DNA of 64,000 nucleotides from Actinomycetota bacterium (GTDB lineage Bacteria; Actinomycetota; Humimicrobiia; Humimicrobiales; Humimicrobiaceae): positions 2,705 to 66,704 of the forward strand of contig JAQVDY010000006.1 in assembly GCA_028698215.1 (NCBI GenBank), given 5' to 3'. This document shows, piece after piece, positions 2,620-22,668 of the stretch. The position numbers and the translations under genes are program-made. Each line of letters starts with the position of its first letter. Within the stretch, counting starts at the first letter, position 1. The notes beneath the pieces were generated by a model, which worked only from the letters and a program-made list of their open reading frames with translations, was not told the DNA's origin and ran no database searches.

Positions 2620-2689
2620 TTTTTTACTTCCTTAATTTTTTGGAGCCTGACAATATCGGCAATCCCCTCAAGCCCCAATTTTTAAAGCA

Positions 2690-2790
2690 CAAAAAAAACC
2701 GGCCTAATTAGCCGGTTACGCTACTTGCTCCACTTTTCCCAAGCGTCCAGGTTGAGGAAAAGCTTCAAAGCATCTAATTAATTTATGTTT
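2690..2790 (-). ncRNA. Candidate small RNA or cis element, copy B. It is a paralog of 2292-2400 and has its own intrinsic terminator.
   Basis: Same core as copy A. The hairpin AACCGGCC-TAAT-TAGCCGGTT (2697-2717) is followed on the minus strand by a U-run (plus-strand A-run 2689-2696). Confidence 0.3.
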
Positions 2791-2978
2791 TATTAATTTT
2801 AATACAAAGTCACCCTAAAAATCAAAATATATTTTATTTTTTTTCAATTTTATAAACCATTAATTTTATATATTAATTTATATATAAATACTTGACAAAC
2901 ATAATCATATTTATTATCATTAAATGTATTAATACTTTTATATTTAATAATATAAAAGATTATACGAAAACAAGGCAT

Positions 2979-3036
2979 AAAAAAGAGGGGAGTCAATTTT
3001 AAAAAGCCTGGACGCCACTTTTTAACGACTCCCCTC
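2979..3036 (-). terminator. Rho-independent terminator closing the long minus-strand operon that ends with the binding-protein gene.
   Basis: A 10-bp GC-rich stem GAGGGGAGTC (2985-2994) pairs with GACTCCCCTC (3027-3036), with an inner AAAAAG/CTTTTT extension. On the minus strand it is followed immediately by UUUUUU (plus-strand A-run 2979-2984). It lies ~100 nt downstream of the stop at 3135. Confidence 0.5.
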
Positions 3037-3134
3037 AATAAGCATAGTATCATACAAATATTATAGTTTGCAATCAAATTTTATTTTATAATTTTTAGAC
3101 TTGCTACAAACCTTAGCTGTATAAAAAAATTACC

Positions 3135-5808: not shown

Positions 5809-6226
5809 GCTTCTCAGATTCTTCCTTTATAAACTGTTCGAACTCAGGCCCAGCTTTCATCAGGTTGGCTAAGTCTTCATCCAGGTTGTCCGGTTTTATC
5901 TTAGCTATCCAGCCTTCATCATAAGGAGACTCATTGATGAGCTCCGGTTCATCTTCCAAATCTTCATTTACCTCTACTATTTCTCCGGTAACCGGGGCAT
6001 AAAGCTTGCCTACCCATTTGCCTGATTCCAGGCTGGAAAAAGGCTTGCTCTGCTCTACCTTGGCTCCGGCCAGGGGCAGCTCTATATAGACTATATCACC
6101 AGCCAGTTTCTGGAAGAAATCAGTAGCTCCCATAATTACCATGCCGTCGTCATCTGCCTTGGCCCAGAAATGGTTTTTTTCATAATAAAGGTCATCTAAA
6201 AATTCATATCCTGCTATTTCCATCAT
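5795..6226 (-). CDS. Glycine-cleavage H-protein-like lipoyl-carrier protein.
   Basis: The segment SLESGKWVGKLYAPVTGEIVEVNEDL aligns with the H-protein lipoyl site ESVKAASD(V)YAPVSGEVVEVNE, including the lipoyl-lysine. Size is 143 aa. Confidence 0.6.
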   Translation of the reverse strand: MMEIAGYEFLDDLYYEKNHFWAKADDDGMVIMGATDFFQKLAGDIVYIELPLAGAKVEQSKPFSSLESGKWVGKLYAPVTGEIVEVNEDLEDEPELINESPYDEGWIAKIKPDNLDEDLANLMKAGPEFEQFIKEESEKHGQK

Positions 6227-8880: not shown

Positions 8881-10161
8881 CTATTTTTTTAGAAATGGCA
8901 TAACATAAGGCCCTTCTGGAATTACGGTAACTTTTGCATCTTTCCCATACCGGGCAAACCCAATATCTAAAGCTTCCGAAACCGAATTAACCAATTTAAG
9001 GGTATCTTCAGGTATACCCTGGCCGCAGTCCGTCAGGCAATGGCTGTACAAATATATCTCCGCTTTTTTCCTGGCCTTTGCCAGCTCTTCCAGCTCCCAC
9101 TGGTCTATTTTAAAATAGTCGGTATTGCAGATCCTGTCCATGAACCGGCCTAAATCCTTTTCTGATTTTAGGAGCTGTGTAAATTCCTGGCTGCCTATTT
9201 CCTGGATGCACTGGGCAGCAATAATTATCATGCCGTCCTGTTTTACCGCAGGCAGGCAGCCTACCATGCCTTTTACAGCCTGATAGACATTTACATCCAG
9301 GGGCAGGCCGCCTCCGGTAGTAATAACTATATCTGCCTCCTGGCTAATTTCTGCCCTGCTGGACTTAAGGCAGAACTCTGCCCCCTGCCGGTGGGCCGTT
9401 ACCAGGTCACCGCAGAATATGCCGGTAACCTGCTTTTCCTTGTTAATAGTCACATTTACTATAAAATCTACCCCTGCTTTCTTTGCTATTTCAGTAGCCT
9501 CTTCATGGAAGGGATTGCCGTCCAGCACCCCGGTGGTGGAATGGCTGGACTCCAGTATGGCCGGGCCATGAAAGTATTTAAACATATCCATATAGCTAAT
9601 GCCGGGGCATATGGATTTTCTTCCTCCAGAAAAACCGGCCATAAAATGGGGTTCGATCAAGCCGGTTAAAATTTTAAAGTCAGCTTTTAGGTAATTCTTA
9701 TTTAAAATGACGGGAGTGCCCTGGGAAGTCTGCCCAATATCCTGGCAAGACTGACGGTCCCGGGCATCATGATTTATAATGCGGTAGGTTTCAGCTATGT
9801 TTTTGCCTACCAGCTGTTCTAACTCTTTACCTACATTGGGCCGGTGCAGCCCGGTAGCAATGAGTATGGTAATGTTTTCCCGGGCTATGCCATAGCTTTC
9901 CAGCTCCGCCAGAAGCACCTCTAAAATCAACCGGGTAGGCACTGCCCTGGTGGAATCTGAAATAATGATACAAACATCTTTTTTGCCTGCCACCAGTTTC
10001 TCCAGCGGCTGGCTGTCAATGGGGTTTTTAATACTTTCAGCGATTTTCTGCTCAGGATGGTCCACCGGTTTAGTGGGCCTGGTTTCCAGCACATACAGCA
10101 GGTTCCTTTCCGGAACCTCTACCTCTAGTTTGGTATTGCCGTAATCTAGTTTTATTCCCAT
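8881..10161 (-). CDS. larA: Nickel-pincer-nucleotide-dependent lactate racemase family protein (LarA / DUF2088).
   Basis: A 426-aa protein with LarA-like N- and C-terminal domain patterns, and the conserved His/Lys-rich segments typical of LarA. larBCE are not in the window. Confidence 0.55.
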   Translation of the reverse strand: MGIKLDYGNTKLEVEVPERNLLYVLETRPTKPVDHPEQKIAESIKNPIDSQPLEKLVAGKKDVCIIISDSTRAVPTRLILEVLLAELESYGIARENITILIATGLHRPNVGKELEQLVGKNIAETYRIINHDARDRQSCQDIGQTSQGTPVILNKNYLKADFKILTGLIEPHFMAGFSGGRKSICPGISYMDMFKYFHGPAILESSHSTTGVLDGNPFHEEATEIAKKAGVDFIVNVTINKEKQVTGIFCGDLVTAHRQGAEFCLKSSRAEISQEADIVITTGGGLPLDVNVYQAVKGMVGCLPAVKQDGMIIIAAQCIQEIGSQEFTQLLKSEKDLGRFMDRICNTDYFKIDQWELEELAKARKKAEIYLYSHCLTDCGQGIPEDTLKLVNSVSEALDIGFARYGKDAKVTVIPEGPYVMPFLKK

Positions 10162-10164
10162 AAT

Positions 10165-10713
10165 TTACATTATTGCCCTATACAAATCCTTATGTGGTGA
10201 TGCTATTACCCTGTAATCTACTAAAAAATCTTTTTCCCGGGCATAAGATATGGCTGCCGAAATTGATTCATTAACTGAAGATACATCACCATTGATTATG
10301 ACCATATTTTTGCCGCCAATAGCCCTGGCGATCCTTATCTCTACCAGGTCTACCGATGTAGCTTTAACCGCAGCATCCGCAGCCACGATAATAGAAGGCG
10401 AAGTAAGGGTTTCTACCACGCCTATGGACTTCCATTCCTTTACCTCCGAAGCCTGGTTGATAGCAGAAAACAGCTCGGGGTAAACATTGGATACAGCCCC
10501 ATAATCTATGATAAAGTTTTCATTTTCATCTACTACTACCTGCAGGGAATTGGATACAGCGCTAACGCTGCCCGCAAATACAATATAATATTTTCCCGGA
10601 CAGATGGTTTTAGCATCCAATATCCTTACATCTGAGGCCTTGACCAGAGTATCTATGGCCCCAATTCCAATAGCAATACTGCGAAACTCTACAATTCCAA
10701 TAGACTTTTCCAT
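10165..10713 (-). CDS. BMC-T shell protein (tandem BMC domains, PduT-like). It carries the conserved pore cysteine for a 4Fe-4S cluster.
   Basis: There are two BMC domains. The motif KTICPGKYYIV matches PduT KTICPGKF around Cys38. Confidence 0.7.
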   Translation of the reverse strand: MEKSIGIVEFRSIAIGIGAIDTLVKASDVRILDAKTICPGKYYIVFAGSVSAVSNSLQVVVDENENFIIDYGAVSNVYPELFSAINQASEVKEWKSIGVVETLTSPSIIVAADAAVKATSVDLVEIRIARAIGGKNMVIINGDVSSVNESISAAISYAREKDFLVDYRVIASPHKDLYRAIM

Positions 10714-10732
10714 TAATCTAATTCCGCCCTAT

Positions 10733-11104
10733 CTATTTTTTGTTTTTCTTCTTTCCGCCGCTTACCTTGGCCGGTTTTTCCTGTTTACGGCTTCGTGACC
10801 GGGGAAAAGTGCCCTTGCCGTCACGAACCATCTTGCCCGATATAATTTTTTCCAAATCAGGATGAGGCCTGGGTATTATATGTACACTTATGATTTCTCC
10901 AATCCTCTTGGCTGCTGCTGAGCCTGAGTCCAAAGCAGCCTTAACTGCGCCTACATCGCCGGATATGATTACGGCAGCATAACCGCTGCCTACATAAGCC
11001 TTGGATATAAGCTTAACATTGGCCGCCTTTACCATAGCATCTGCAGCTTCGGTGGCCCCCACCAGTCCCCTGGTTTCAATAAGTCCTATTGCTTCCCCGT
11101 TCAT
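10733..11104 (-). CDS. BMC-H shell protein (PduA/EutM-like) with a ~30-aa Lys/Arg-rich C-terminal tail.
   Basis: The sequence [32 protein letters not shown]...[11 protein letters not shown] is canonical BMC-H. The tail is [28 protein letters not shown]. Confidence 0.8.
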
Positions 11105-11128
11105 CGGTTAAAATCTCCTTTCAAAGCC

Positions 11129-12547
11129 CTATTTCACAAAGTTCATAGAGCGGTACATAGTTATTTTTCGCTGCCTGGTGAAAGTCCTGGGGGTGGTATG
11201 CCCTTCCCCGGTAGCACCAGCCAGGGTCCAGGATGTTCCGCCTGTGGCCAGGGTTCCGGCGCTTCTTTGAGAAGCCCCGTTGACAATAAAATTAGTAGTG
11301 CCGATCTTCTGGCCATAATAGGTTATACGGCTCAGGTCTTTGGAATGGACCATAGCGGTATGCCTGAAACCATGCTCTACTTCACAGGCCATATCTACTG
11401 CCTGCTCAAAGGTATCTGCAATCAATATGGGCACTATGGGCATAAGCTGCTCATGCTGTACCAGCGGATGGGAAATGGAATCTGCCACAAACACCGCCAG
11501 CTTAACCGAGTTGTCCACATTGATGCCTGCCTGCTGCAGGATTACCGGGCAATCCTTGCCCATCAATGGTTTAACTATCTCTCCATCTTTTACTACCAGA
11601 CCGGTTACCTTGGCAGCCTGATCCGGGTTTAGTACCACTGTCTTGTTTTTAGCAATGGCAGAAAGGAACCTGTCAGCCACGCTTCTCAGTACAATAATTA
11701 CCTTCTCGTCATTACACAATATATTGTTGTCAAAAGCAGCTCCAAAGGCGATTTCGCTGGCTGCCAGTTCGATATCTGCGGTATCGTCTACCACTGCCGG
11801 CGGATTGCCGGGTCCGGCGCCAATAGCCTTCTTGCCGCTCTTCATAGCCATATCCACTATCTGGGGCCCCCCGGTAGCACAAATTAAATTTATATCCGGG
11901 CTTTTAAACACGGCAGCTGCATTCTGCATCTTGGCTTCCCTGGTAGCGGTAATAAGGTTGGGAGGCCCGCCGGCATCCACTATAGCCTTATGAACTACCT
12001 TAAAGGATTCCAGGGTACACTTATTAGCTGCCGGATGAGGCAGGAATACCACTGAGTTTCCTGCGGAAACCATGATTATAGTATTATTGATAACCATGGG
12101 AGTAGGGTTGGTCATAGGAGTTATAGCCCCTATCACTCCCCATGGAGCCATCTCGAAAGTCTGGGTTCCGTCATCACTGCTAAAAGTGGTAACTTCCAGC
12201 TCTTCGGGACCCACTGTCCAATCGATAGCCACTCTTACCTTTTCTTTTTTATCCTCAAAGTTGCCCATCTTGGTTTCATCTACACTTAACCTGGCAAAGT
12301 TTTCTATATGCTTTCTGCATTCCCTGCGGATTGAATCCACTATCTTGTAGCGGATATCTTTACCCATAGCGGATAGTTGCTGTTGAGCTACTTTTGCTGC
12401 CTTTATGGCATCCTCAATATTATCAAACAAACCATCAGCAGAGGTAACCACAGATGAAGCCTTAAGGCTGGTAGAATTTTGGCTAACCGAAAGGTTATCC
12501 ACCACACTTCTTACTATTCTCTCTACGGTTTTTTCATCTATAGCCAC
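11129..12547 (-). CDS. CoA-acylating aldehyde dehydrogenase (PduP/EutE-like) with an N-terminal encapsulation peptide.
   Basis: It is ALDH-superfamily throughout, with the catalytic Cys region ILCNDEKV. The N-terminal amphipathic helix EKTVERIVRSVVDNL, followed by a Ser/Thr linker, resembles the PduP encapsulation peptide. Confidence 0.75.
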   Translation of the reverse strand: MAIDEKTVERIVRSVVDNLSVSQNSTSLKASSVVTSADGLFDNIEDAIKAAKVAQQQLSAMGKDIRYKIVDSIRRECRKHIENFARLSVDETKMGNFEDKKEKVRVAIDWTVGPEELEVTTFSSDDGTQTFEMAPWGVIGAITPMTNPTPMVINNTIIMVSAGNSVVFLPHPAANKCTLESFKVVHKAIVDAGGPPNLITATREAKMQNAAAVFKSPDINLICATGGPQIVDMAMKSGKKAIGAGPGNPPAVVDDTADIELAASEIAFGAAFDNNILCNDEKVIIVLRSVADRFLSAIAKNKTVVLNPDQAAKVTGLVVKDGEIVKPLMGKDCPVILQQAGINVDNSVKLAVFVADSISHPLVQHEQLMPIVPILIADTFEQAVDMACEVEHGFRHTAMVHSKDLSRITYYGQKIGTTNFIVNGASQRSAGTLATGGTSWTLAGATGEGHTTPRTFTRQRKITMYRSMNFVK

Positions 12548-12581
12548 ATCTTACCCCCTGTAAATTTCATTACTTTGTAAA

Positions 12582-13583
12582 TCAATTGATCTTAATACCT
12601 CTTTCTTTTGCTTCGTCTCTAGCCAGCGGGGTTAATATAACATTGGGGCCCAAAGTTATGCCGGTATCCCTGTACTGGTCCAGGTCATCTGCAGTAATTA
12701 CCAGTTTTCTGCCATTGCTGCTTTCAGGAGCCGATGGCACTTCTATTGTCTGGGCCTGGTCATTAGCAGAGCTTGAATTGATGCTTTTCAGTACATTGAT
12801 ATCAGTGATCTCTCCTGCATAACTGCCGTCAGGAATCTCCGGGGGAGTCCCATTGGCATTAGCCATCTGCGGCGCAATAGGGGCAATACAGGAAGCATCA
12901 ACTACTTCTACCAAGCTGCCGTTAACAATATCAGCCGCATTGGCATCATCAGTATCCACATGCATCTCAGTTTTAAAATCAGGAGCAACCCTTACCTGCA
13001 CATTATTAAAGGTAAGGCCTTTTGGCCCGGGTACCCTTACATCAACTTCATCATTGTCTTTTAGGCCAAAGTAGTTGGCATCCTCGGTACACATATGTAT
13101 GTGACGGTTTGCCCTTATGACCCCTTCTTTTAGATAAACCACGCCTTTAGGTCCCACAATCACCGCGGAGGAAGTGCCCTCCAGCTTGCCGCTGGGCTTA
13201 ACCGGGGCGTCTACCCCCAATATGATGCAGTCAGTTTTAGCCAACTCCACCTGTGACCTGTCCCTTAAAGGCCCCAGGATCCTCACATTCTGCAGGGCAT
13301 TAAGTTTAGGTCCTACCACTGTGACTGTTTCTTTGGCTGCAAATCCGGGGTTATAAAGTTCCCTTAAGGGAGTAAGCTTGTAGCCCTTGCCAAACAATGT
13401 ATCCAAATCTTCCTGGCAAAGGTGGACATGCCTTACTGATACCCCGCATACTATTTTCCTGTTACCTGTTTTTACCTGTCCCATATCCTGGCTAGCAACC
13501 GCCTTCTGAGGTACTTTTGGCTCGGACTGCAGTTTTTCCATTACGCTAATAACCACATCCCGAATTAGTTTTTCGGTATCCAC
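12582..13583 (-). CDS. PduL-type phosphotransacylase with an N-terminal encapsulation peptide and an uncharacterised ~110-aa C-terminal extension.
   Basis: There are two PduL repeats with the motifs RHVH and RHIHM. The N-terminal helix is EKLIRDVVISVMEKL. The C-terminal segment RKLVITADDLDQYRDTGITLGPNVILTPLARDEAKERGI is not part of canonical PduL. Confidence 0.7.
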   Translation of the reverse strand: MDTEKLIRDVVISVMEKLQSEPKVPQKAVASQDMGQVKTGNRKIVCGVSVRHVHLCQEDLDTLFGKGYKLTPLRELYNPGFAAKETVTVVGPKLNALQNVRILGPLRDRSQVELAKTDCIILGVDAPVKPSGKLEGTSSAVIVGPKGVVYLKEGVIRANRHIHMCTEDANYFGLKDNDEVDVRVPGPKGLTFNNVQVRVAPDFKTEMHVDTDDANAADIVNGSLVEVVDASCIAPIAPQMANANGTPPEIPDGSYAGEITDINVLKSINSSSANDQAQTIEVPSAPESSNGRKLVITADDLDQYRDTGITLGPNVILTPLARDEAKERGIKIN

Positions 13584-13625
13584 TTTAAAATACCTCTCTT
13601 TTATTTAACAATAAATAATTTTGGC

Positions 13626-13901
13626 TTATTCACTAGGTAAAATCAGGTCCAGATCCTGATGAGGTCTAGGAATAACGTGAACTGAGAGAAGTTCTCCTAC
13701 CCTTTTTGCGGCAGCAGCACCAGCGTCAACAGCTGCCTTTACTGCGCCTACGTCGCCTTTAACTATAACTGTTACCAAGCCGCCGCCGATTCTTTCCTGG
13801 CCCATCAAGGTAACATTTGCAGCTTTAACCATTGCGTCAGCTGCTTCTACTGATCCTACTAGTCCTCTGGTTTCGATTAAACCAATTGCTTCTCCTGCCA
13901 T
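13626..13901 (-). CDS. BMC-H shell protein (PduA/EutM-like).
   Basis: The sequence [32 protein letters not shown]... is canonical BMC-H. Size is 91 aa. Confidence 0.85.
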
Positions 13902-13974
13902 TTTTGTTTCTCCTTTTTTATCTTATGGTTTACGAATTTATAATTATAAACAAAAATAAATATTTTAGTAGTGT

Positions 13975-14769
13975 TTATTTATTATTATCCAATATATTAG
14001 ACACTATTTTAGTTATCAGCCTGGACAGCTCATCCTTGGTCATAGTGATGGTGTCCCCGCTTCTGCCAGCCCCGGTCTCCGGGCCCAGCTGCTCTGAATT
14101 TATCCTGCATCCTGCATAATGCTGGTCCATTCCCCATTCCTGCCTGAGCTTTAGCATCTTTTCCACATTTTCCTTATCTATTAAGTTAATCTGTCCCAAC
14201 TGCCTGGCCACCAGGTAAATCTTGGCAAACAGCTCCATGCTCTCCATCCGGTAATAAGCCTGGTATACATCTGAGCCTATAGACAGAGCCCCATGGTTTT
14301 CCAGTAAAAAAGCATTATGATGGGGCAGGTACTCCCGGATATTATTAGGTATCTCTTCCGTGGAAGGGGTTCCATATTTGGTGAGAGGTATGGATCCCAA
14401 AGCTATAACCACTTCCGGAATAACACACTGGTCCAAAGCCATCCCTGCACAGGCAAAACCAGTAGCTGTAGGGGGATGGGCATGTACCACTGACCCCACA
14501 TCCGGCCGGTTTTTATAAACATCCAGATGCATCTTGATTTCTGAAGAGGGCTCCAGCTCCCCTTCCAGCTTACGTCCTTCCCCATCTACCTTAATCAGCT
14601 GGTCGCTGGTAAGATAGCCCTTACTTCTTCCGGTAGGGGTGCATAGGTACAGGTTATTATCCATCTTAACCGATACATTGCCGTCATTGGCAGCTACCCA
14701 GCCCTGGGCATATACCCTATGGCAGATCTCTATAATGTCTTTCCTGTGCTCGCTCTCGCTTTTAGTCAT
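13975..14769 (-). CDS. Class II aldolase/adducin-family enzyme (fuculose/rhamnulose-phosphate-aldolase-like) with a C-terminal encapsulation peptide.
   Basis: The segment VVHAHPPTATGF has the class II aldolase zinc-binding H-x-H motif. A ~45-aa C-terminal extension ends in the amphipathic helix TKDELSRLITKIVSNIL. Confidence 0.65.
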   Translation of the reverse strand: MTKSESEHRKDIIEICHRVYAQGWVAANDGNVSVKMDNNLYLCTPTGRSKGYLTSDQLIKVDGEGRKLEGELEPSSEIKMHLDVYKNRPDVGSVVHAHPPTATGFACAGMALDQCVIPEVVIALGSIPLTKYGTPSTEEIPNNIREYLPHHNAFLLENHGALSIGSDVYQAYYRMESMELFAKIYLVARQLGQINLIDKENVEKMLKLRQEWGMDQHYAGCRINSEQLGPETGAGRSGDTITMTKDELSRLITKIVSNILDNNK

Positions 14770-14792
14770 TTAACTTCCTTTATTACATATAA

Positions 14793-15368
14793 TTAACATC
14801 TACACATGGCTGACGTAAGCCACCTTAATACCTGGGGATCTGGATTAGCTATGACCTTCTGGCCGATTAAAGCTCCCTTTTCTGCCAGGTACTCTGAGGC
14901 CACCCTTACTGCTTCCTGCACTGCAGCCAGCTGGCCGGTTATTACAAAAAAGCTGTTAACCCCGCATCCCCGGGCCAGCCTGAAATCCATAAACTCCACT
15001 TCCGCCGTGTCCACTGTAATATCTGCAGCATTGATAAGATAAGCCATCTGCATTGATTCCACTATCCCTATCGCTCCCAGCACCGCCGGGCTGATCTTAC
15101 CGCTTATGGCCCCTATGACCTTGGCATCTATACCCCCTATAATCTCGGTGCTGTACAGATGCTTGCCCCCCATATTTACCGCTACCTCCACAGAAGTATC
15201 CAGGGCATCCATCTCTCCCTCTACCAGGGTAAGGTATTTCCCCGGACAAAGGGAAGTGGCTACCAGCAGGTTAACCTGGGAAGCCTTTATCAGGCTGTCG
15301 GTAACCTCTACGCCCCTGGCTATGCTTTTAAACTCCATTACTGCTATATTTCCGATATTGTCTTTCAT
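14793..15368 (-). CDS. BMC-T shell protein (tandem BMC domains, PduT-like) with a conserved pore cysteine.
   Basis: There are two BMC domains. The motif TSLCPGKYLTL corresponds to the PduT Cys38 region. Confidence 0.7.
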   Translation of the reverse strand: MKDNIGNIAVMEFKSIARGVEVTDSLIKASQVNLLVATSLCPGKYLTLVEGEMDALDTSVEVAVNMGGKHLYSTEIIGGIDAKVIGAISGKISPAVLGAIGIVESMQMAYLINAADITVDTAEVEFMDFRLARGCGVNSFFVITGQLAAVQEAVRVASEYLAEKGALIGQKVIANPDPQVLRWLTSAMCRC

Positions 15369-16699
15369 TATCCTTTACCTATCTCCACATAATCAGAAGT
15401 TATGTTTAGCACTTTTCCGCTGATGGAGCTGTGGATCCTGGCTCCCAGTTTACCTTGGGGTATATCTGCTACCAGGCCGCCTTCCGGTACCAAATCGCCC
15501 ACTTTCACCACTGGAGATGAAGGCGCTCCTACGTGCTGGCTGAAATAAAGCTTGACTTGTTCCACCTTCCCGGTAAAATCTACCAGCTCAGTTTCAGGAT
15601 AATGGTCTATTTCCAGCCTTTGCCTAAGCCTGCTTACCGGAATCTTGCGGTAAGCCTTAAATTCATTGGCTTCTAAATCCTTCCTCTGGTGAGGATTCTT
15701 GATCCCCCTCTTGGCCAGCTCCACTTTAAGATGGTTGAAAATAGCCCGGGGAGAAAGGTCCACTATGCAGGCATACAGTTCACACAAGCCGCAGTCGCAG
15801 CATAAATAGGCATAATCGAAATTTTCTATATCCTGTTCATTTAGCTCTCCCTTGTACAGCCTCTTCATCATCTCATCAGGGAAAAGATCATGCCCTAACA
15901 GGTAGCGGGGGCATAGGTCAGTGCACATCCTGCAGCTAAGGCAGGCTGCCTGGCCCCTTTTGATCTGGCCTGAGGCTGACCTATTTTTCTGTACAGTCAC
16001 TATATTGTCTGCAGGCAGCACCATTATGGACTTGGTGGTTTTCTTTACTGCATAACTGTCCTGGTCAATCAGCTTGCCCATCATGGGACCTCCGTCATAG
16101 ACGGCGTATTCATCCGCAGTTATGCCTCCCACATAATCCAATAATAGTTTGACCGGGGTGCCTACCGGCACCTTTATGGTGGTTGGATTGGCAACTTCCC
16201 CGTTTAAGGTAACATATTTCTGGGTAACCTTGATTCCCTTGACCGCCTGGGCCACATTAAGCAGGGTTTCCACATTTATAACTACACAACCCACCATCAG
16301 GGGAATGCCCCCTTCCGGGACAATCCTGCCCGTAGCTTCATACACCATAGTCTGCTCATCACCTGCCGGGTAGAAATTCCCCATCTTGCAAAGCTCAAAA
16401 TCAAAGCCCTTTTTCTGGTAGCTTTCGATGGCAGCAATAGCTTTTTTGTATTTGGCTTTCAGGGCAATGATTACCCTTTTAGCGCCAGTAAGGTTAGCAG
16501 CAATTTTTAACCCTTCCAGCACTGTAGCAAATTCCTTTTCCAGCAACTGTTTGTCCACATCGATTAACGGCTCGCATTCAGCCGCGTTTACTATAAGGTT
16601 TTCAATTTTGGCATCCAGTTTTACATGAGTGGGAAAACCTGCGCCTCCGGCACCAACTACGCCGGCATCCTTGATACTATCAATTTCTTTACTTGCCAT
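15368..16699 (-). CDS. PduS/RnfC-like flavo-Fe-S oxidoreductase (NADH-binding plus two 4Fe-4S clusters).
   Basis: It has an RnfC-type N-terminus (VVGAGGAGFPTHVKL) and the cluster motifs CLSCRMCTDLCP and CCDCGLCELYAC. Size is 443 aa. Confidence 0.65.
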   Translation of the reverse strand: MASKEIDSIKDAGVVGAGGAGFPTHVKLDAKIENLIVNAAECEPLIDVDKQLLEKEFATVLEGLKIAANLTGAKRVIIALKAKYKKAIAAIESYQKKGFDFELCKMGNFYPAGDEQTMVYEATGRIVPEGGIPLMVGCVVINVETLLNVAQAVKGIKVTQKYVTLNGEVANPTTIKVPVGTPVKLLLDYVGGITADEYAVYDGGPMMGKLIDQDSYAVKKTTKSIMVLPADNIVTVQKNRSASGQIKRGQAACLSCRMCTDLCPRYLLGHDLFPDEMMKRLYKGELNEQDIENFDYAYLCCDCGLCELYACIVDLSPRAIFNHLKVELAKRGIKNPHQRKDLEANEFKAYRKIPVSRLRQRLEIDHYPETELVDFTGKVEQVKLYFSQHVGAPSSPVVKVGDLVPEGGLVADIPQGKLGARIHSSISGKVLNITSDYVEIGKG

Positions 16700-16700
16700 A

Positions 16701-16967
16701 TTACTCCAAATCTATTTTGTCAACTTTTGCCACTATGGCAGCATCGACATTTTTTTTACGGGTAATTTCAGTTCTTTTTGCCGTACTGCCCGTCACAATT
16801 AATCCAATTTCCCCCTCACCCAGGCCTACGGTGTCTACCGCCACAAAATATTCCGGCCTGCGGCTCAAATCTGTTTCCAGGCACTGTACCAGAAGTATCT
16901 TAAAACCTTCCAGGGTAGGGTCCTTTATAGTGGACGTAACTTTTCCTATTACTTTTACCAATCTCAT
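16701..16967 (-). CDS. BMC-P vertex pentamer protein (EutN/PduN/CcmL family), paralog type A.
   Basis: An 88-aa protein with the EutN_CcmL pattern (MRLVKVIGKV...VAVDTVGLGEGE...IVAKVD). Confidence 0.75.
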   Translation of the reverse strand: MRLVKVIGKVTSTIKDPTLEGFKILLVQCLETDLSRRPEYFVAVDTVGLGEGEIGLIVTGSTAKRTEITRKKNVDAAIVAKVDKIDLE

Positions 16968-16973
16968 AACTAT

Positions 16974-17264
16974 TCATCCGTTAATCACTTTGCCACCCTC
17001 AAGGTCAATACTGTCTACCAGCCCTACTATGCAGCCCCTTATGGGTATACTCCTGATACCCATAACCTTGCAGATAGTAACCCCGTTTTCAATCCAGTAG
17101 ACCAGGCTTCCTGAAGCAGCATTAAGGTAATCAGCCACAATTATCTTCCTGCCCCGGGTCCTGCCGTCAGGATCCAATGGCTCCAGCACCAAAAGCTTTA
17201 TTCCCTGCAGCCTTTCGTGCTTACTTGTGGACACTACATTGCCTATTACCTTACCCAGCCTCAT
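16974..17264 (-). CDS. BMC-P vertex pentamer protein, paralog type B.
   Basis: A 96-aa protein with the EutN_CcmL pattern (MRLGKVIGNVVST...). Confidence 0.7.
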   Translation of the reverse strand: MRLGKVIGNVVSTSKHERLQGIKLLVLEPLDPDGRTRGRKIIVADYLNAASGSLVYWIENGVTICKVMGIRSIPIRGCIVGLVDSIDLEGGKVING

Positions 17265-17265
17265 C

Positions 17266-18030
17266 TTAAAATATTACCTCTATTTGGTGTTGTTTAAAAA
17301 GATCAATATAACCAGCCTGTGGTTTCTTGTCTGTAATTATAGTATTAATGTCAGCCATTAGGCAAACCCTATTTAACGTGACCTTGCCAAATTTAGAGCT
17401 GTCCATAAGCAATACGGCCCTTGCCGAATTTTTAATTATAGAACGCTTTATAAAAATATTGTAGGGGTTGGGTTCAGTTACCCCTGCATCCAAAGATATG
17501 CCGGCGGCAGATATAAAGCAAAAGTCTAAATTTATGTCTTTCAGCAAGCCTGCTGCCAGAACCCCGTAAAAACTATTGGTCAGCATGTTGAGCTCGCCCC
17601 CGGTAGAAACCACCTTGATTTCAGGATTACCCTTAAGCTCATTTATGATTTCCAGCCCGTTGGTAATCACAGTTATATCGGGAATACCTTTAAGCCTGCG
17701 GGCCAGGGCCAGGCAAGTAGTAGAGCCATCTAAAAAAAGGCTGTCTCCCTTGCTAACCAAAGCAGTAGCCTTGGCCGCTATAATATCTTTTTCAGCAGTA
17801 TGTATCCTGTCCCGGAATTTGCTGGGAATCTCATGGGAGGAATCATTTAGGGCCAGGGCTCCCCCGTATACCCTTTTTAATACCCCTTCTTTTTCCAAAA
17901 CCGCCAGGTCCCTTAATACCGTCATTTCCGAAACATTGAACATGTCTGAAAGTTCGGAGGTCTTGATGCGGCCGTCCTTGTTTATAATCTTGGCGATTTC
18001 CAACTTTCTTTCTGCTGAAAGCATATCCAA
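17266..18030 (-). CDS. DeoR-family transcriptional regulator (HTH_DeoR plus DeoRC sugar-phosphate-binding domain).
   Basis: The N-terminal HTH is SELSDMFNVSEMTVLRDLAVLEKEG. The C-terminal DeoRC pattern is present. The annotated start is TTG; an internal ATG at 18024 is the more likely start. Confidence 0.75.
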   Translation of the reverse strand: MDMLSAERKLEIAKIINKDGRIKTSELSDMFNVSEMTVLRDLAVLEKEGVLKRVYGGALALNDSSHEIPSKFRDRIHTAEKDIIAAKATALVSKGDSLFLDGSTTCLALARRLKGIPDITVITNGLEIINELKGNPEIKVVSTGGELNMLTNSFYGVLAAGLLKDINLDFCFISAAGISLDAGVTEPNPYNIFIKRSIIKNSARAVLLMDSSKFGKVTLNRVCLMADINTIITDKKPQAGYIDLFKQHQIEVIF

Positions 18031-18197
18031 ATCCAGTTATGTTATTTGTTATTAGTTTATGTTTATTTCTGTGGTTTGTCAATTTCCATTTAGCAGGGCA
18101 ATATCTCTTTCCACCCCCGTACAAAGCGCATATATGCGGTATTTATATCAAATTTTCAGTTGATTTATTTTAACTGGGCAATAGTATAAAATTAAAA

Positions 18198-18215
18198 TAC
18201 AATCATTAGATTGTA
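18198..18215 (+). promoter_or_regulatory. Inverted repeat TACAATC-ATTA-GATTGTA, a candidate BlaI/CopY-type operator overlapping the promoter of the downstream regulator gene.
   Basis: A perfect 7-bp dyad with the TACA/TGTA core typical of BlaI/MecI/CopY boxes. It lies ~40 nt upstream of the ATG at 18254, downstream of a TTGATT -35 (18160-18165). Confidence 0.4.
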
Positions 18216-18253
18216 TATAAAATTTTTGCCGCAGCAGTAGAAGGAGGCCGCAA

Positions 18254-18640
18254 ATGAAGGATAAAGAGACTAGAAAAAAGTCACAGGAAATAGGCATAAG
18301 TGGCCTAAACAGCATCAGCAACCTGGAAGCCAATATCATGAAAATCATATGGGAACGAAAAAAGGCCACGGTAAGGGAAGTTCATGAACTGATGCTAAGA
18401 AAGGAAATAGAGAAAAAGAAAGATAGTTTTATACCTTACACCACGGTTATGTCTACCATGAATACTTTAGCTGAAAAGAAACTTCTAAACCAGGATAGGG
18501 CTGCAAAAACTTATATCTATTCCCCGGCAGTGACTAAAACCGAACTGGCAAAAAGCATTTTCCAGACAGTGGCAGACAAGATTCTGGCTGGAACCAATCA
18601 GCAAAACAGGGTAAACAAGTTTATAAGCAGCATGCAATAG
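18254..18640 (+). CDS. BlaI/MecI/CopY-family (penicillinase-repressor-type) winged-helix transcriptional regulator. It is the only plus-strand gene in the BMC locus.
   Basis: The segment NLEANIMKIIWERKKATVREVHELM...YTTVMSTMNTLAEKKLL matches the Penicillinase_R pattern. A GGAGG RBS is present. Size is 128 aa. Confidence 0.65.
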   Translation: MKDKETRKKSQEIGISGLNSISNLEANIMKIIWERKKATVREVHELMLRKEIEKKKDSFIPYTTVMSTMNTLAEKKLLNQDRAAKTYIYSPAVTKTELAKSIFQTVADKILAGTNQQNRVNKFISSMQ

Positions 18641-18643
18641 CCT

Positions 18644-18913
18644 TTATTGCCCTATCTTGATACTGTCCACCTTGGCTACTATGACCGAATCAATGCTTTT
18701 TTCCCTGGTCCGTTCAGTCATGCGCGCCGAACTACCGTTAACCACCAGCACCCTTTCTCCGATGCCTACCCCTACCAGATCCACTGCTACCACGAAGGGG
18801 TCCAGCAGTTTGCCTTCCAGGTCTACTGCCTTTACCACCATTAGTTTTTTGCCTTCCAGGCTGCTGTCTTTCTGGGTGCATACTACATTACCTATCACTT
18901 GGCCTAAAACCAT
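18644..18913 (-). CDS. BMC-P vertex pentamer protein, paralog type A.
   Basis: An 89-aa EutN_CcmL pattern. It is most similar to the 16701-16967 product. Confidence 0.75.
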   Translation of the reverse strand: MVLGQVIGNVVCTQKDSSLEGKKLMVVKAVDLEGKLLDPFVVAVDLVGVGIGERVLVVNGSSARMTERTREKSIDSVIVAKVDSIKIGQ

Positions 18914-18922
18914 AATTATCCG

Positions 18923-19198
18923 TCACTCCCTGTTAATATTAACCTTGTCTATCAAAGCTACTATGGTAGCGTCAGTAGGCACATCCTCCTGGTCAAAAGC
19001 CCAGGTAGCTTCAGATCCGTCCTCATAGCCTACGATATCCCCTATGCCTGCAGAAGTGGCATCCAGGGCTACCAGGAATGTTCCCTGTTCCTCTCCCGTC
19101 TCCAGGTCAATGGGCTGGATAACCTGTATTTTTTTTCCTTCCAGTCCCTGGTGCTTAATGGTAGCCACCACATTGCCTATAACTTTAGCATAATACAA
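18923..19198 (-). CDS. BMC-P vertex pentamer protein, paralog type B.
   Basis: A 91-aa EutN_CcmL pattern (MYYAKVIGNVVATIKHQGLEGKKI...). Confidence 0.7.
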   Translation of the reverse strand: MYYAKVIGNVVATIKHQGLEGKKIQVIQPIDLETGEEQGTFLVALDATSAGIGDIVGYEDGSEATWAFDQEDVPTDATIVALIDKVNINRE

Positions 19199-19234: not shown

Positions 19235-20158
19235 CTAATTTTGACCAACCGCCAACTTAGCCGCCTTCAAAGTGTTTTTTAGCAGCATGGCTATAGTCAT
19301 GGGCCCCACTCCGCCCGGCACCGGAGTTATGAAACCTGCTTTGGGCTCTACCCTTATAAAATCCACATCCCCTATAAGGGTGGTGCCTTTCTTTTCGAAA
19401 TCCTCTCTTCTCCATTCCAAAAGCTCAGGGCCGGCCTGGGCTGCTTCTATCCTGTTTATGCCTACATCTATAACTGCTGCTCCCGGCTTTACCATTTCCT
19501 CCTTGATCAGGTAGGGGACCCCTGCCGCTACTATCAATATATCCGCATCCCTGGTATGAGCCGCCAGGTCCTTGGTCTCTATATGGCATACAGTTACTGT
19601 AGCCCATTCATTTAACAGCAGTAAAGCAGTGGGTTTTCCCACATTTTCGCTATGGCCCACCATGGTGGCATTCTTTCCCTTGATAATTATATCCTCCCTT
19701 TTTAGCAGCTCTATTATGCCGGCAGGAGTAGCCGGCAGGAGGCAATCCTGCTGTGCTACCAGCTTGCCCATATTGAAAGGGTGGAATCCATCCACATCTT
19801 TTCCGGGATCTATGGCTATCAGTACCTGGCTGGTATCCACCTGTTGCGGCAAAGGCAGCTGCACCAGTATGCCGTGTATATCATCCCTGCGGTTAAGTTT
19901 GTTTATCTGGGCTAAAATATCAGGGGTATTAACCGTACTGGGCATATTTATGGTCTCTGATTTTATGCCCACCTGGCGGCAGCCTTTCTCCTTATTAGCC
20001 ACATATACCTTGGAGGCGGGGTTATCCCCCACCAGTATCACTGCCAGTCCCGGAACTATCCCCTTTTCCTGTTTTATCCGGCTAACTTCAATTTCTACTT
20101 CCTGTTTTATCTGGGCAGATATATTTGCCCCATTTATTAGCTTAGCTATATTGATCAC
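19235..20158 (-). CDS. folD: Bifunctional 5,10-methylene-THF dehydrogenase / methenyl-THF cyclohydrolase.
   Basis: Full-length FolD pattern. Size is 307 aa. Confidence 0.85.
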   Translation of the reverse strand: MINIAKLINGANISAQIKQEVEIEVSRIKQEKGIVPGLAVILVGDNPASKVYVANKEKGCRQVGIKSETINMPSTVNTPDILAQINKLNRRDDIHGILVQLPLPQQVDTSQVLIAIDPGKDVDGFHPFNMGKLVAQQDCLLPATPAGIIELLKREDIIIKGKNATMVGHSENVGKPTALLLLNEWATVTVCHIETKDLAAHTRDADILIVAAGVPYLIKEEMVKPGAAVIDVGINRIEAAQAGPELLEWRREDFEKKGTTLIGDVDFIRVEPKAGFITPVPGGVGPMTIAMLLKNTLKAAKLAVGQN

Positions 20159-20188
20159 CCCTCAGTGTTGCGAAGTTTATAAAGTTTT

Positions 20189-21910
20189 TTAAAACAAGCC
20201 TACAATATTACCGTCCTGGTCCAGATCCACCCTGGTTCCTGCCGGAACTTTGGGGAGCCCGGGCATGGTCCTCATCTCTCCCAGCAGGGGATACAAAAAT
20301 CCTGCCCCTGCCGAAACCCTTATATCCCTGATAGGCACCCTGAACCCGGTAGGCCTTCCCTTTAAATTTGGGTCATGGCTTAAAGAAAGGTGGGTTTTGG
20401 CCATACATATGGGAAGATGGGCAAAACCCTGCCTGGTATAGGTCTCCAACTTTTTCCGGGCTTCCGGCAAGAAATCTACCCCATCCGCCCCGTAAATCCT
20501 GGTAGCTATGGTCTCAATCTTTTGCTCAATCGGCCAGTCCAGGGGATACAGGTAACCAAACTCTGATTTCTTTTCCGCCGCTTTTACTACTGCTTCCGCC
20601 AGCCCTGTGCCCCCGGCTCCGCCTTCCAGCCACACCCGGCTGACTACCGCATCCTCGGCTCCGGCTGCTGCTGCTTTTTCCCTGATGGTTTCTATCTCCT
20701 GGGAAGTATCGGTATCAAAATGGTTAATGGCCACTACCACCGGCACCCCATGCAGTTTGACGTTTTCTATCATCTTTTCCAAATTCTGGCAGCCCTTGGC
20801 AACCGCCTCCACATTAGGGGTTTCCATAAGCTGCCGGTCTACCCCCTGGCCGGGTATAAATTCAAAGCCGCCCCCATGCATCTTAAGCGCCCTTACCGTG
20901 GCCACAATTACTGCCGCATCAGGCTTAAGCCCAGAATACCTGCACTTTATATTAAAGAATTTCTCTGCCCCGATGTCCGCTCCAAACCCGCTTTCGGTAA
21001 CCACATAGTCTCCCAGCTTTATAGCCAGCTGATCAGCCAAAATAGAACTGTTTCCATGGGCTATATTGGCAAAAGGACCGGTATGTACAAAGCAGGGGGT
21101 ATGCTCAATGGTCTGCACCAGGTTGGGTTTTATGGCATCTTTTAACAGTACAGCCATAGCTCCCGCGCATTTTAGGTCTTCTGCAGTAACCGGACGGCCG
21201 TCATAGGTGGAGCCTATAGTCATCTTGCCCAATTTTTCCCTCAAATCCTTAAGGCTGGTGGTTAAAGCCAAGATAGCCATTACTTCACTGGCAACAGTGA
21301 TATCATAACCGGTTTCCCGGGGTATGCCGTTTAAAGGTCCCCCCAGCCCCACCACTATATTGCGCAGGGCCCTGTCACTTACATCCACTACCCGGTTTAA
21401 GGTTATGCTGAAAGGATCAATATTAAGGTCATTGCCCTTCATCAGGTGGGTATCCAGAAAAGCAGCCAGCAGGTTATGGGCAATTCCCACCGCATGGATA
21501 TCCCCGGTAAGGTGCAGGTTAAAATCTTCCATGGGCAGCACCTGTGAATATCCGCCCCCTGCTGCTCCCCCCTTGATCCCAAATACCGGACCCAGTGAAG
21601 GCTGCCTGATACAGGTAATGGTCTTTTTCCCTATTTGGTTTAAGGCCATGCTAAGCCCTATGGTAGTTACTGTCTTGCCCTCTCCCAGGGGAGTGGGGGT
21701 AATAGCGGTTATGTCTATGTACTTTCCATCAGGCCGGTCTTTTAAGCTTTCCAAGGCAGACAGGTTTACCTTAGCCTTGTAATTTCCATAAAGCTCCAAA
21801 TATTTTTCATCCAGCCCTACCGAATCGGCAATTTGGTAAATATGCTTCATGTCCGCAGCCTGAGCTATTTCTATATCGCTCTTCAAACCGGCTCCTTTCT
21901 TAAGTAGCAA
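20189..21910 (-). CDS. fhs: Formate--tetrahydrofolate ligase.
   Basis: Full-length Fhs/FTHFS pattern. Size is 573 aa. Confidence 0.85.
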   Translation of the reverse strand: MLLKKGAGLKSDIEIAQAADMKHIYQIADSVGLDEKYLELYGNYKAKVNLSALESLKDRPDGKYIDITAITPTPLGEGKTVTTIGLSMALNQIGKKTITCIRQPSLGPVFGIKGGAAGGGYSQVLPMEDFNLHLTGDIHAVGIAHNLLAAFLDTHLMKGNDLNIDPFSITLNRVVDVSDRALRNIVVGLGGPLNGIPRETGYDITVASEVMAILALTTSLKDLREKLGKMTIGSTYDGRPVTAEDLKCAGAMAVLLKDAIKPNLVQTIEHTPCFVHTGPFANIAHGNSSILADQLAIKLGDYVVTESGFGADIGAEKFFNIKCRYSGLKPDAAVIVATVRALKMHGGGFEFIPGQGVDRQLMETPNVEAVAKGCQNLEKMIENVKLHGVPVVVAINHFDTDTSQEIETIREKAAAAGAEDAVVSRVWLEGGAGGTGLAEAVVKAAEKKSEFGYLYPLDWPIEQKIETIATRIYGADGVDFLPEARKKLETYTRQGFAHLPICMAKTHLSLSHDPNLKGRPTGFRVPIRDIRVSAGAGFLYPLLGEMRTMPGLPKVPAGTRVDLDQDGNIVGLF

Positions 21911-22068: not shown

Positions 22069-22668
22069 CTATTTCTCTGTGGCCTGCAGGCTTAGATGGA
22101 CCTCTCCATCGGAATCCATGATAAACACATTAACATTATAGTTATCGTTATCGGCAATAATCGTGGAAGTGGTGCCTTCTTCATCTTCATAGGTCTGCTG
22201 GCTGGTAATATTCCAGCCGGACATCTCCTGTTTATACCATTCAAACAGTTCAGTGCCGGATCCGCCCTGGTACTGGCCTAATATGCTAAACTGCTGCTGG
22301 CCGCCTTCCTGGCCGGAAGCGCTGGTAATAATATTTAAATCGGAAGGAACGGGGATCTGGCTGGGAAAATCATCAGGGATACTTAAATTTTCCCCGGAAC
22401 TAATAGTGGTTTCGCCATCTTCAGTAGTAATGGTAGCTCCTTCATCATCAGAGCTGATACTGAATTGCTCACCGTCTTCTCCGGTAATATTTACCTCCCC
22501 GCTGCTTAAATCCACATCTATATCCTGGCCTTCAGAAGCAGCTGCACTCTCAATTATTTTCTCCGTTATTTTTTCAGCGGCACAACTACAACCTGTAAAC
22601 AAGAAGGCAGCTAGTAGCATGGCTGCCGAAATAGCTATGATTTTCTTCATTTTTGCTCCTTTGACCAT
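22069..22668 (-). CDS. Acidic Gly/Ser/Thr/Asp/Glu-rich lipoprotein of unknown function.
   Basis: A signal peptide with a lipobox (LFTGC). The mature part is low-complexity and acidic. Confidence 0.5.
   Translation of the reverse strand: MVKGAKMKKIIAISAAMLLAAFLFTGCSCAAEKITEKIIESAAASEGQDIDVDLSSGEVNITGEDGEQFSISSDDEGATITTEDGETTISSGENLSIPDDFPSQIPVPSDLNIITSASGQEGGQQQFSILGQYQGGSGTELFEWYKQEMSGWNITSQQTYEDEEGTTSTIIADNDNYNVNVFIMDSDGEVHLSLQATEK

Follow-up and report, generated by a model that had tools for sequence, protein, structure and literature searches.

Gene content of the locus

The 64-kb stretch of DNA analysed here (hereafter the window, to which all coordinates refer) carries at 10165–19198 a cluster of genes for a bacterial microcompartment (BMC). 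That the cluster encodes a metabolosome is virtually certain, and it very probably belongs to the MIC4 type, with a cargo set of a class II aldolase, a CoA-acylating aldehyde dehydrogenase (AldDH), the phosphotransacylase PduL and a PduS homolog. It is a genuine BMC gene cluster, with the Pfam matches of its open reading frames (ORFs) far above the gathering score, and an independent gene caller applied to the source contig (a 106-kb contig of JGI metagenome 3300001682) returned identical genes. The ORF positions given by an earlier reading of the DNA, made from the sequence alone (the original prediction), are all borne out. With the exception of the BlaI gene, every ORF of the locus lies on the minus strand. 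In order of transcription the genes are:

18923–19198, minus strand: BMC-P vertex protein P1, 91 amino acids (aa); PF03319 (EutN_CcmL), E = 1e-24
18644–18913, minus strand: BMC-P P2, 89 aa; PF03319, E = 4e-25
18254–18640, plus strand: BlaI/Penicillinase_R-family repressor; PF03965, E = 7e-20
17266–18030, minus strand: DeoR-family regulator of the sugar-phosphate-sensing type; HTH_DeoR and DeoRC (Pfam)
16974–17264, minus strand: BMC-P P3, 96 aa; PF03319, E = 7e-22
16701–16967, minus strand: BMC-P P4, 88 aa; PF03319, E = 2e-23
15368–16699, minus strand: PduS homolog (MNdh), 443 aa; Complex1_51K at residues 9–150, SLBB at 162–208, Fer4_17 at 252–315, RnfC_N at 380–439
14793–15368, minus strand: PduT-like BMC-TS T1; two BMC domains (Pfam), pore Cys41 in SLCPGKY, C-terminal CxC
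13975–14769, minus strand: class II aldolase with predicted C-terminal encapsulation peptide; PF00596 (Aldolase_II), E = 3e-48
13626–13901, minus strand: canonical BMC-H hexamer protein H1, 91 aa; PF00936, E = 2e-30
12582–13583, minus strand: PduL phosphotransacylase with predicted N-terminal encapsulation peptide; PTAC domain PF06130 at residues 46–218, E = 8e-71; NCBIfam PRK15070, 246 bits against a cutoff of 209
11129–12547, minus strand: CoA-acylating AldDH with predicted N-terminal encapsulation peptide; PF00171; NCBIfam PRK15398, 522 bits against a cutoff of 403
10733–11104, minus strand: BMC-H H2, 123 aa, with a basic C-terminal tail; PF00936
10165–10713, minus strand: PduT-like BMC-TS T2; two BMC domains (Pfam), pore Cys38 in TICPGKY

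Eight of these genes encode shell proteins: four BMC-P, two BMC-H and two PduT-like BMC-T. Nine had been claimed, but the original list itself sums to eight, and a tblastn search of the whole 64 kb with all of the shell proteins found no ninth.

Distribution and compartment type

With the aldolase as query, 43 loci were recovered in a genome scan, and the closest of them come from uncultured Actinomycetota. Sixteen related Actinomycetota loci (L001–L016) were used for ortholog comparisons, and synteny was determined by mapping the window proteins onto them with tblastn. Aldolase identity is 56–78% across L001–L016 and L043. Over 120 protein clusters formed at 90% identity contain this aldolase (53–78% identity), so that metagenomes commonly hold the lineage-specific locus. 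Among the relatives, L006 is a member of Ca. Humimicrobiia, and a protein match (P0109) is named Ca. Humimicrobiaceae. The host is probably an uncultured acetogen-like actinobacterium from Ca. Humimicrobiia or a near relative. A literature search of incomplete coverage found nothing on microcompartments in OPB41 or Humimicrobiia.

Synteny is conserved across at least 16 species-level genomes. The order DeoR-P3-P4-PduS-T1-aldolase-H1-PduL-AldDH-H2-T2-LarA-GlcD-GlcF-GcvH-RACo, which runs past the last shell gene, is complete in L001, L008 and L012, while the contigs of L005 and L016 end at GlcF and that of L013 at GlcD. The arrangement FolD-P1-P2-...-BlaI-DeoR occurs in L010 and L014.

In the BMC catalogue of Sutter et al. 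(2021), MIC4 comprises 15 loci and is an 'incomplete core' type without biochemical characterisation. Its described content is an AldDh with an N-terminal encapsulation peptide (EP), a phosphotransacylase (PTAC), a pfam00596 aldolase and a pfam00871 acetate kinase, together with a triplet of BMC-P belonging to the green, grey and orange clades, on occasion a further green-clade BMC-P, and a PduS adjoining a PduT-type BMC-TS with a conserved pore cysteine. The window locus likewise has an AldDH with an N-terminal EP, a PTAC and a PF00596 aldolase in the main locus, and a PduS next to a PduT-type BMC-T with the pore cysteine. Its four BMC-P could correspond to a triplet plus an extra green-clade member, with P1 and P3 in two different deep clades. 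Within the scanned set, L043 (Actinobacteria bacterium ADurb.Bin346) has the P-P-PduS-T-aldolase order found here, and its BMC-P are tagged bmcType=MIC4 (Sutter 2021). The 89-aa BMC-P of this genome, BWY60_00574, is assigned to paleGreen, MIC4 (sat), in the Sutter 2021 BMC-P tree, and the 88-aa BMC-P, BWY60_00005, to paleGreen, MIC4 (main); the two were matched to P2 and P4, respectively, by length alone.

There are several departures from the published MIC4 description. Acetate kinase is catalogued for MIC4, but none occurs among the locus genes or the larger scanned ORFs of the 64 kb; the gene may lie in another part of the genome. Two cysteine-bearing BMC-T are present here, compared with the single BMC-T published, the BMC-P set is divided into two pairs by the DeoR and BlaI genes, PduL has an extra C-terminal domain, and LarA-GlcD-GlcF is appended. 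Further, the gene order is unlike that of Bacteroidota and Ignavibacteria loci of the same content, including the Ignavibacteria named for MIC4, and the AldDH is 35–41% identical to the AldDH of Bacteroidota/Ignavibacteria loci. The possibility raised at the outset that the locus repeats a well-characterised subtype of identical content and order thus holds only in part: the type is catalogued, but it is uncharacterised, and its published description lists acetate kinase, one BMC-T and no lactate module.

The four BMC-P had been described as two A/B paralog pairs and as unusual in number. P2 and P4 do form such a pair (47% identical, in one shared clade by pairwise identity and a neighbour-joining tree), whereas P1 and P3, at 33% identity, are not closer to each other than the remaining pairs are, and they belong to separate deep clades of BMC-P. 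P1 and its orthologs in L010 and L014 make up a distinct deep clade, and the P3 clade stands apart from P1, P2 and P4 as sister to one member of the BMC-P triplet of Bacteroidota and Eisenbacteria loci; each of these two deep clades is common to BMC-P (triplet members) of other phyla. Pairwise identity and the tree rule out P1 and P3 as a duplicated vertex pair. The MIC4 description already allows an occasional extra green-clade BMC-P, which would account for the four BMC-P of this locus, and the claim of an unusual number is not supported.

Both BMC-H proposed from the sequence are present. H1 is 88–99% identical across relatives. H2, 67% identical to H1, ends in the predicted polybasic tail, although this spans about 32–35 residues, 14 of them K/R, and not the 28 aa first given; a basic extension of variable sequence occurs in all orthologs.

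The two regulators inside the locus were absent from the original prediction. The DeoR gene is kept upstream of P3 in most relatives and has a promoter-like site beside it (18082–18054), and no NCBIfam equivalog matched the protein above its cutoff. The scan for promoters and terminators gave 43 sites where 33 ± 5.5 were expected, which is not significant overall, and operon boundaries rest on gene spacing. The BlaI-family repressor is probably unrelated to the BMC; its gene has the same location in L010, L014 and L015, and separates P1 and P2 from the remaining locus. In L010 and L014 the next gene after BlaI is an ORF of 360 aa (at 1504–2583 and 2524–3603, respectively) that appears hydrophobic over its first 60 residues and at a guess is BlaR1-like, while the BlaI gene in the window stands alone.

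Cargo enzymes and their predicted targeting

The terminal segments of the aldolase (C-terminus), AldDH and PduL (both N-terminus) hold up as predicted EPs, as originally proposed, on the grounds of conserved motifs, variable linkers and, for the aldolase, a modelled terminal helix. The peptide strings first quoted are all present in the sequence. The aldolase motif ELVxIVxKIVxNI is kept in 16 orthologs, the AldDH motif IDExQIExIVRxVVxNL in the 11 orthologs with a readable N-terminus, and the PduL motif DTExLIRDVVxNV is conserved in related Actinomycetota loci, while the linkers behind all three EPs vary in length and sequence across the 16 related loci. Helical hydrophobic moments are 0.75 for the aldolase, 0.82 for AldDH and 0.50 for PduL; the aldolase and AldDH EPs rank top within their own proteins, and the PduL EP ranks fourth. 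An AlphaFold2 model of the aldolase (44 homologs) places a helix at residues 245–262 (pLDDT ~85) after a disordered stretch at 231–240. The same EP positions on AldDh, PTAC and aldolase are found in MUF3 loci of Clostridia, which also carry PduS/T mid-locus; MUF3 differs in having one BMC-P and an acetate kinase.

PduS, LarA, GlcD and GlcF have no terminal extensions relative to their family profiles, and LarA, GlcD and GlcF are for this reason taken to be cytosolic. An amphipathic C-terminus of the GlcF-like protein was considered as an EP and not counted, since it falls inside the TfrB-family alignment.

The aldolase keeps the equivalents of the FucA Zn ligands (H92, H94 and H155) and catalytic glutamate (E73), along with N29, T43/G44 and S71/S72, phosphate-binding residues included. 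Assignment of its substrate was attempted with NCBIfam, with single-sequence comparison to the PDB and with profile comparison to the PDB, in which FucA and OtnC-like enzymes were about equally close. Judged by these comparisons, the enzyme has the class II aldolase fold and falls in a subfamily of its own that is associated with BMCs.

PduL carries an extra C-terminal domain of about 45 aa after a variable linker (12585–12764, minus strand), with the motif KKxVITxxDLDxY..GI.V..NVILSPLARDEAxxRGIKI. The domain is found in all actinobacterial orthologs and is absent from the PduL of the other 20-plus loci. It has no Pfam match at E <= 0.1 and no meaningful PDB match, and an alignment to residues 2–46 of E. 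coli EutQ was weak (hhalign probability 29%, pairwise E 6e-4). This add-on, a detail not previously described, may be a second shell-binding or scaffolding module.

Proposed electron transfer across the shell

The PduS homolog has the domain order PF01512, PF10531, 4Fe-4S dicluster and PF13375, and the N-terminus of RnfC (7ZC6, residues 17–84) aligns to its residues 366–434, such that the barrel domain is permuted to the C-terminus. Its sequence shows GAGGAGFPT, a nucleotide/FMN motif, as well as CLSCRMCTDLCP and CCDCGLCELYAC, and two cysteine clusters are also present. This is the architecture of the metabolosome NADH dehydrogenase (MNdh), defined by its C-terminally permuted RnfC_N (Sutter et al. 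2024, PMC11626177). In that study, assays, electron paramagnetic resonance and voltammetry demonstrated NADH oxidation by MNdh, with the electrons handed on to the Fe-S cluster in an adjacent BMC-TSE, a partner that carries a CP(G/S)K motif; the cytosolic acceptor for BMC-TSE was left unidentified, and 361 BMC loci were found to have PduS/T without an alcohol dehydrogenase (PMC11626177).

The window locus appears to be one more case of this kind. Pfam and NCBIfam scans of the locus and the larger ORFs of the window identified no alcohol dehydrogenase in or next to the locus, which agrees with the original observation that an RnfC/PduS-like protein is present and an alcohol dehydrogenase absent. 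Electron export through PduS and PduT in place of an alcohol dehydrogenase was thus rightly deduced at first, although this Fe-S way of recycling NAD+ is not new, having been published with experimental support in Sutter 2024. On the evidence of domain architecture and motifs, recycling via MNdh is probable here. As in the published module (PMC11626177), the four-domain PduS homolog with C-terminal RnfC_N stands immediately beside a BMC-TS with CP(G/S)K (SLCPGKY in T1; the PduS stop codon overlaps the T1 start by 1 nt), with AldDH in the same operon and no alcohol dehydrogenase. The locus differs from the module in having a second Cys-bearing BMC-T away from MNdh, and in that the MNdh-adjacent copy is a divergent paralog with a C-terminal CxC.

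Both T1 and T2 align end to end with the PduT structures 3PAC and 3N79, and also with 3NWG; the best PDB matches of T2 are 3NWG and PduT. The cysteine of each CPGK falls on the position of PduT Cys38 (C38 in T2, C41 in T1), and both proteins keep the pore cysteine as initially stated. T1 has CPGK in 16 of 16 orthologs and belongs to a divergent clade found in actinobacterial loci only. Its C-terminal C-x-C, in the motif W-[LM]-x-S-S-[LM]-C-x-C (here SAMCRC, 14793–14815, minus strand), is kept in 14 of the 16 orthologs, is absent from T2 and from PduT, and could provide an additional site for a metal or a disulfide close to the surface of the trimer. The T2 cysteine is kept in all orthologs, as CPGK or CAGK. 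T2 clusters with the PduS-adjacent BMC-T of other phyla (Bacteroidota, Eisenbacteria and Firmicutes), yet here it is T1, not T2, that adjoins MNdh. Loss of this cysteine is the general trend in BMC-TS that do not neighbour MNdh (Sutter et al. 2024, PMC11626177), and the second cysteine-bearing BMC-T is a feature not previously described. SPU1 loci of Elusimicrobia also have two BMC-TS; their second BMC-T is without the pore cysteine, and DERA and RpiB are used there.

The putative lactate module and its surroundings

Directly downstream of the last shell gene lies a three-gene module:

8881–10161, minus strand: LarA-family nickel-pincer 2-hydroxyacid (lactate) racemase; Lar_N and LarA_C; NCBIfam Ni_dep_LarA, 433 bits
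7446–8825, minus strand: GlcD-type FAD oxidase; FAD_binding_4 and FAD-oxidase_C; TIGR00387 glcD, 516 bits
6233–7423, minus strand: CCG/4Fe-4S partner (GlcF); two CCG domains and Fer4

The best PDB match of LarA is 9EID, a broad-spectrum lactate racemase (362 bits), and GlcD with its CCG/4Fe-4S partner is a putative D-lactate dehydrogenase. T2 and LarA are separated by 3 nt, and the same spacing is kept in every relative with a contig that reaches that far. LarA follows T2 in L001, L003, L005, L008, L012, L013 and L016, and LarA-GlcD-GlcF is syntenic in L001, L005, L008, L012 and L016; the other two contigs end after LarA (L003) or GlcD (L013). Among the 43 loci, the co-operonic lactate module is restricted to the actinobacterial clade, and the joining of a lactate racemase and D-lactate dehydrogenase module to a BMC operon has not previously been described. 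LarA paired with an FAD-dependent GlcD-family dehydrogenase is a lactate-utilisation unit, as in the lct operon of Acetobacterium woodii. That operon likewise serves both lactate enantiomers in a Wood-Ljungdahl organism; here a CCG/4Fe-4S (HdrD/GlpC-like) partner takes the place of EtfAB, and the module is joined to a BMC operon.

Genes of Wood-Ljungdahl and one-carbon (C1) metabolism flank the locus on both sides. Upstream (19235–21910) are FTHFS and FolD, with 36 nt between FolD and P1, and downstream (3967–6226) are GcvH and the corrinoid activase RACo/AcsV, overlapping or at most 6 nt apart. Both flanks are kept in relatives and the intergenic gaps are very short, which suggests that the BMC and lactate operon is co-transcribed with C1 metabolism genes. 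This placement among Wood-Ljungdahl genes is also not previously described. In L003, a CoA-transferase (PF01144, 536 aa, at 8–1615) takes the place of DeoR directly upstream of the P3-P4-PduS block. From its N-terminal sequence the protein is, at a guess, propionate/lactate CoA-transferase-like, and a lactate-type CoA-transferase would fit a lactyl-CoA chemistry.

Several features elsewhere in the window are recorded as separate observations. Two c-di-GMP-II riboswitch aptamers (Rfam RF01786) occur on the minus strand at 2303–2386 and 2701–2784, with scores of 65 and 70 bits (gathering score 53.5). About 400 nt separates them, the 3-kb stretch that holds them is without an ORF of at least 100 aa, and they presumably control a gene running off the start of the window. 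A 199-aa ORF between FTHFS and LepA (22069–22668, minus strand) has no Pfam match; its N-terminal hydrophobic segment followed by a cysteine resembles a lipoprotein signal, and the remainder is acidic and of low complexity. A 455-aa ORF (41321–42688, minus strand) has no match in Pfam or NCBIfam, and at 52341–53375 (minus strand) an aldo/keto reductase of 344 aa is fused to a C-terminal 4Fe-4S dicluster domain.

Discussion

The set of genes described above, with its domain architectures, its motifs for catalysis and cluster binding, its predicted targeting helices and its conserved synteny, combined with the function of MNdh/BMC-TSE and the PVM-type lactaldehyde pathway taken from the literature, leads to an explanation of the locus that we regard as likely when taken as a whole: a catabolic microcompartment of the MIC4 type with the following proposed pathway. 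A DeoR-type repressor would sense a sugar phosphate. A class II aldolase, targeted to the lumen by its C-terminal amphipathic helix, would cleave a ketose-1-phosphate, most likely a 6-deoxy-hexulose-1-phosphate (L-fuculose-1-P or L-rhamnulose-1-P), to dihydroxyacetone phosphate and an aldehyde, most likely L-lactaldehyde. The EP-tagged AldDH would convert the aldehyde to an acyl-CoA (lactyl-CoA) with formation of NADH, and the EP-tagged PduL would regenerate CoA and release an acyl-phosphate. Inside the shell NAD+ would be regenerated by electron flow from NADH to the FMN of MNdh, through its two 4Fe-4S clusters to the 4Fe-4S cluster of the PduT-like trimer (the BMC-TSE cluster, which pore cysteines would hold), and out to a cytosolic acceptor. 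Outside the shell, a kinase not encoded here would convert lactyl-phosphate to lactate, which LarA and the GlcD/CCG-FeS dehydrogenase would carry to pyruvate. The cargo logic of sugar phosphate to aldehyde to acyl-CoA to acyl-phosphate, already set out in the original prediction, is supported; the substrate, the identity of the aldehyde, the cytosolic site of the lactate module and the electron acceptor are inferred.

Lactaldehyde as the aldehyde is slightly favoured over all other candidates together, because the AldDh of MIC4 is closest to those of MUF2 and MUF3 and the AldDh of MUF2 is in turn closest to that of PVM (Sutter 2021), because the PVM model (Erbilgin et al. 2014) runs from lactaldehyde to lactyl-CoA to lactate, and because LarA-GlcD-CCG/4Fe-4S begins 3 nt after the last shell gene. 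The PVM compartment, which is restricted to Planctomycetes and Verrucomicrobia, also resembles the window locus in its class II aldolase signature enzyme and DeoR regulator. PVM differs in reducing half of its lactaldehyde to propanediol for NAD+ and in carrying an acetate kinase; its NAD+ recycler, of the lactate/malate dehydrogenase type, and its acetate kinase are both absent from the window locus. Further, PduS/T is mostly satellite in PVM (PMC11626177), the lactate racemase/dehydrogenase module present here is lacking there, and the phylum and gene order are unlike, the closest genomes to the window being Actinomycetota.

It should be noted that several observations weigh against this assignment of substrate and product. 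The aldolase scores under every NCBIfam cutoff, with an OtnC decarboxylase model on top (130 bits compared to 250), FucA models at 91–112 bits against cutoffs of 250–400 and RhaD at 55 against 170. In the PDB it is marginally nearer to 6VOP/6VOQ, an OtnC-like decarboxylase, than to FucA (110 vs 100 bits), and the alignment shows no evident counterpart of FucA Tyr113. LarA (433 bits against 460) and GlcD (516 against 568) both fall just under their equivalog cutoffs, and the nearest LarA of known structure is a racemase with a broad spectrum. The lactate module is syntenic within one clade only, such that shared ancestry instead of function could explain part of it. Lastly, no fucose or rhamnose isomerase, assignable kinase or acetate kinase was identified among the scanned ORFs of the 64-kb window.

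A single candidate ketose kinase does occur in the window, about 26 kb from the BMC locus. This is an FGGY-family kinase of 504 aa (gene at 44952–46466, within 44498–46466, minus strand) with xylulokinase as its best model, at 268 bits against a cutoff of 380; an MntR/DtxR-type regulator lies directly downstream with an 11-nt overlap.

The strongest of the alternatives keeps the organelle and changes the aldehyde, and it has perhaps one chance to the lactaldehyde pathway's two or three. The aldolase would then cleave another ketose-1-phosphate: 5-deoxy-D-ribulose-1-P or methylthioribulose-1-P, as in salvage of radical-SAM by-products, to give acetaldehyde or methylthioacetaldehyde, or a pentulose-1-P to give glycolaldehyde. 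LarA-GlcD-GlcF would in this case be an independent lactate-utilisation operon, or a glycolate oxidase. That the aldolase reaches no family cutoff and lies equally far from several class II subfamilies is consistent with such a substrate, as are the described promiscuity of class II aldolases, the lack of deoxy-hexose genes among the scanned window ORFs and the best NCBIfam model of GlcD, the glycolate oxidase subunit GlcD (516 bits). However, a racemase would be pointless for achiral glycolate or acetate, yet LarA lies 3 nt from the last shell gene in all relatives that reach that far. The AldDh placement of MIC4 with MUF2/3, and of MUF2 with PVM, points to lactaldehyde, and MtnB-type models match the N-terminal 100 residues of the aldolase only.

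Somewhat less probable still is NAD+ recycling that depends, as in the PVM model, chiefly on an alcohol dehydrogenase or lactaldehyde reductase, its gene lying elsewhere in the genome, with PduS/PduT accessory or conditional. The catalogue holds 1,725 loci that carry both systems, and in Salmonella a knockout of either merely slows growth (PMC11626177). The view of the genome is limited to 64 kb, and an ORF that looks like a Zn-alcohol dehydrogenase lies a few kb upstream of the L013 locus. Conversely, no such enzyme is encoded in or beside the window locus, and no gene of the core is left unexplained when the window proteins are mapped by tblastn onto the 16 syntenic relatives. MNdh and the adjacent Cys-bearing BMC-T are strictly conserved, and an alcohol dehydrogenase is also missing from 361 published loci (PMC11626177).

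We give little credence to a signature reaction of another kind, with the PF00596 protein acting as an epimerase or as a decarboxylase like OtnC. NCBIfam and the PDB do rank the 3-oxo-tetronate-4-phosphate decarboxylase model and 6VOP/6VOQ first, but FucA follows by a small margin (110 vs 100 bits) and no score comes to half of the family cutoff. With a decarboxylase the co-encapsulated AldDH would receive no aldehyde, the Zn ligands and catalytic Glu are intact, and the EP-bearing PF00596 homologs are the accepted signature aldolases of the PVM, GRM5, MUF and ACI compartments.

A resemblance to SPU/PVM-like loci had been proposed at first, but the closest type is MIC4. An SPU (sugar-phosphate-utilising, DNA-sugar-degrading) compartment shares the AldDH, PduL, PduS/T, several BMC-P and the sugar-phosphate theme, and an 'SPU-like' locus with a class II aldolase has been noted in Latescibacteria, but the universal signature enzyme of SPU is DERA (PF01791), with RpiB (PF02502) also defining (BMC catalogue, Sutter 2021), and with no match to PF01791 or PF02502 among the locus genes in Pfam scans, and no BMC-Tdp, this classification is exceedingly improbable and was rejected.

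Returning to the MIC4-type compartment, the locus provides a complete and well-resolved example of a poorly studied type, from an uncultured and deep-branching actinobacterial lineage. It refines the catalogue entry and does not overturn current understanding. Through its fusion to the lactate module the locus predicts, in a form that can be tested, what MIC4 produces (lactyl-phosphate or lactate), and hence the substrate class, and it is a clean natural case of a metabolosome that apparently relies wholly on MNdh/BMC-TSE for NAD+ recycling. The two cysteine-bearing trimers could help to find the cytosolic electron acceptor. A more speculative extension, which we consider improbable, though less so than a decarboxylase in place of the aldolase, is an actinobacterial subtype with two iron-sulfur ports in the shell, in which T1, translationally coupled to MNdh, would dock it on the lumenal side, T2 would serve as a second redox gate to or from the cytosolic CCG/4Fe-4S partner, and aldehyde oxidation within the shell and lactate oxidation in the cytosol would share the Wood-Ljungdahl electron sink. 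Should this be true, a dedicated acceptor for BMC-TSE would be named and the compartment would be part of an acetogen-style electron-balancing circuit.

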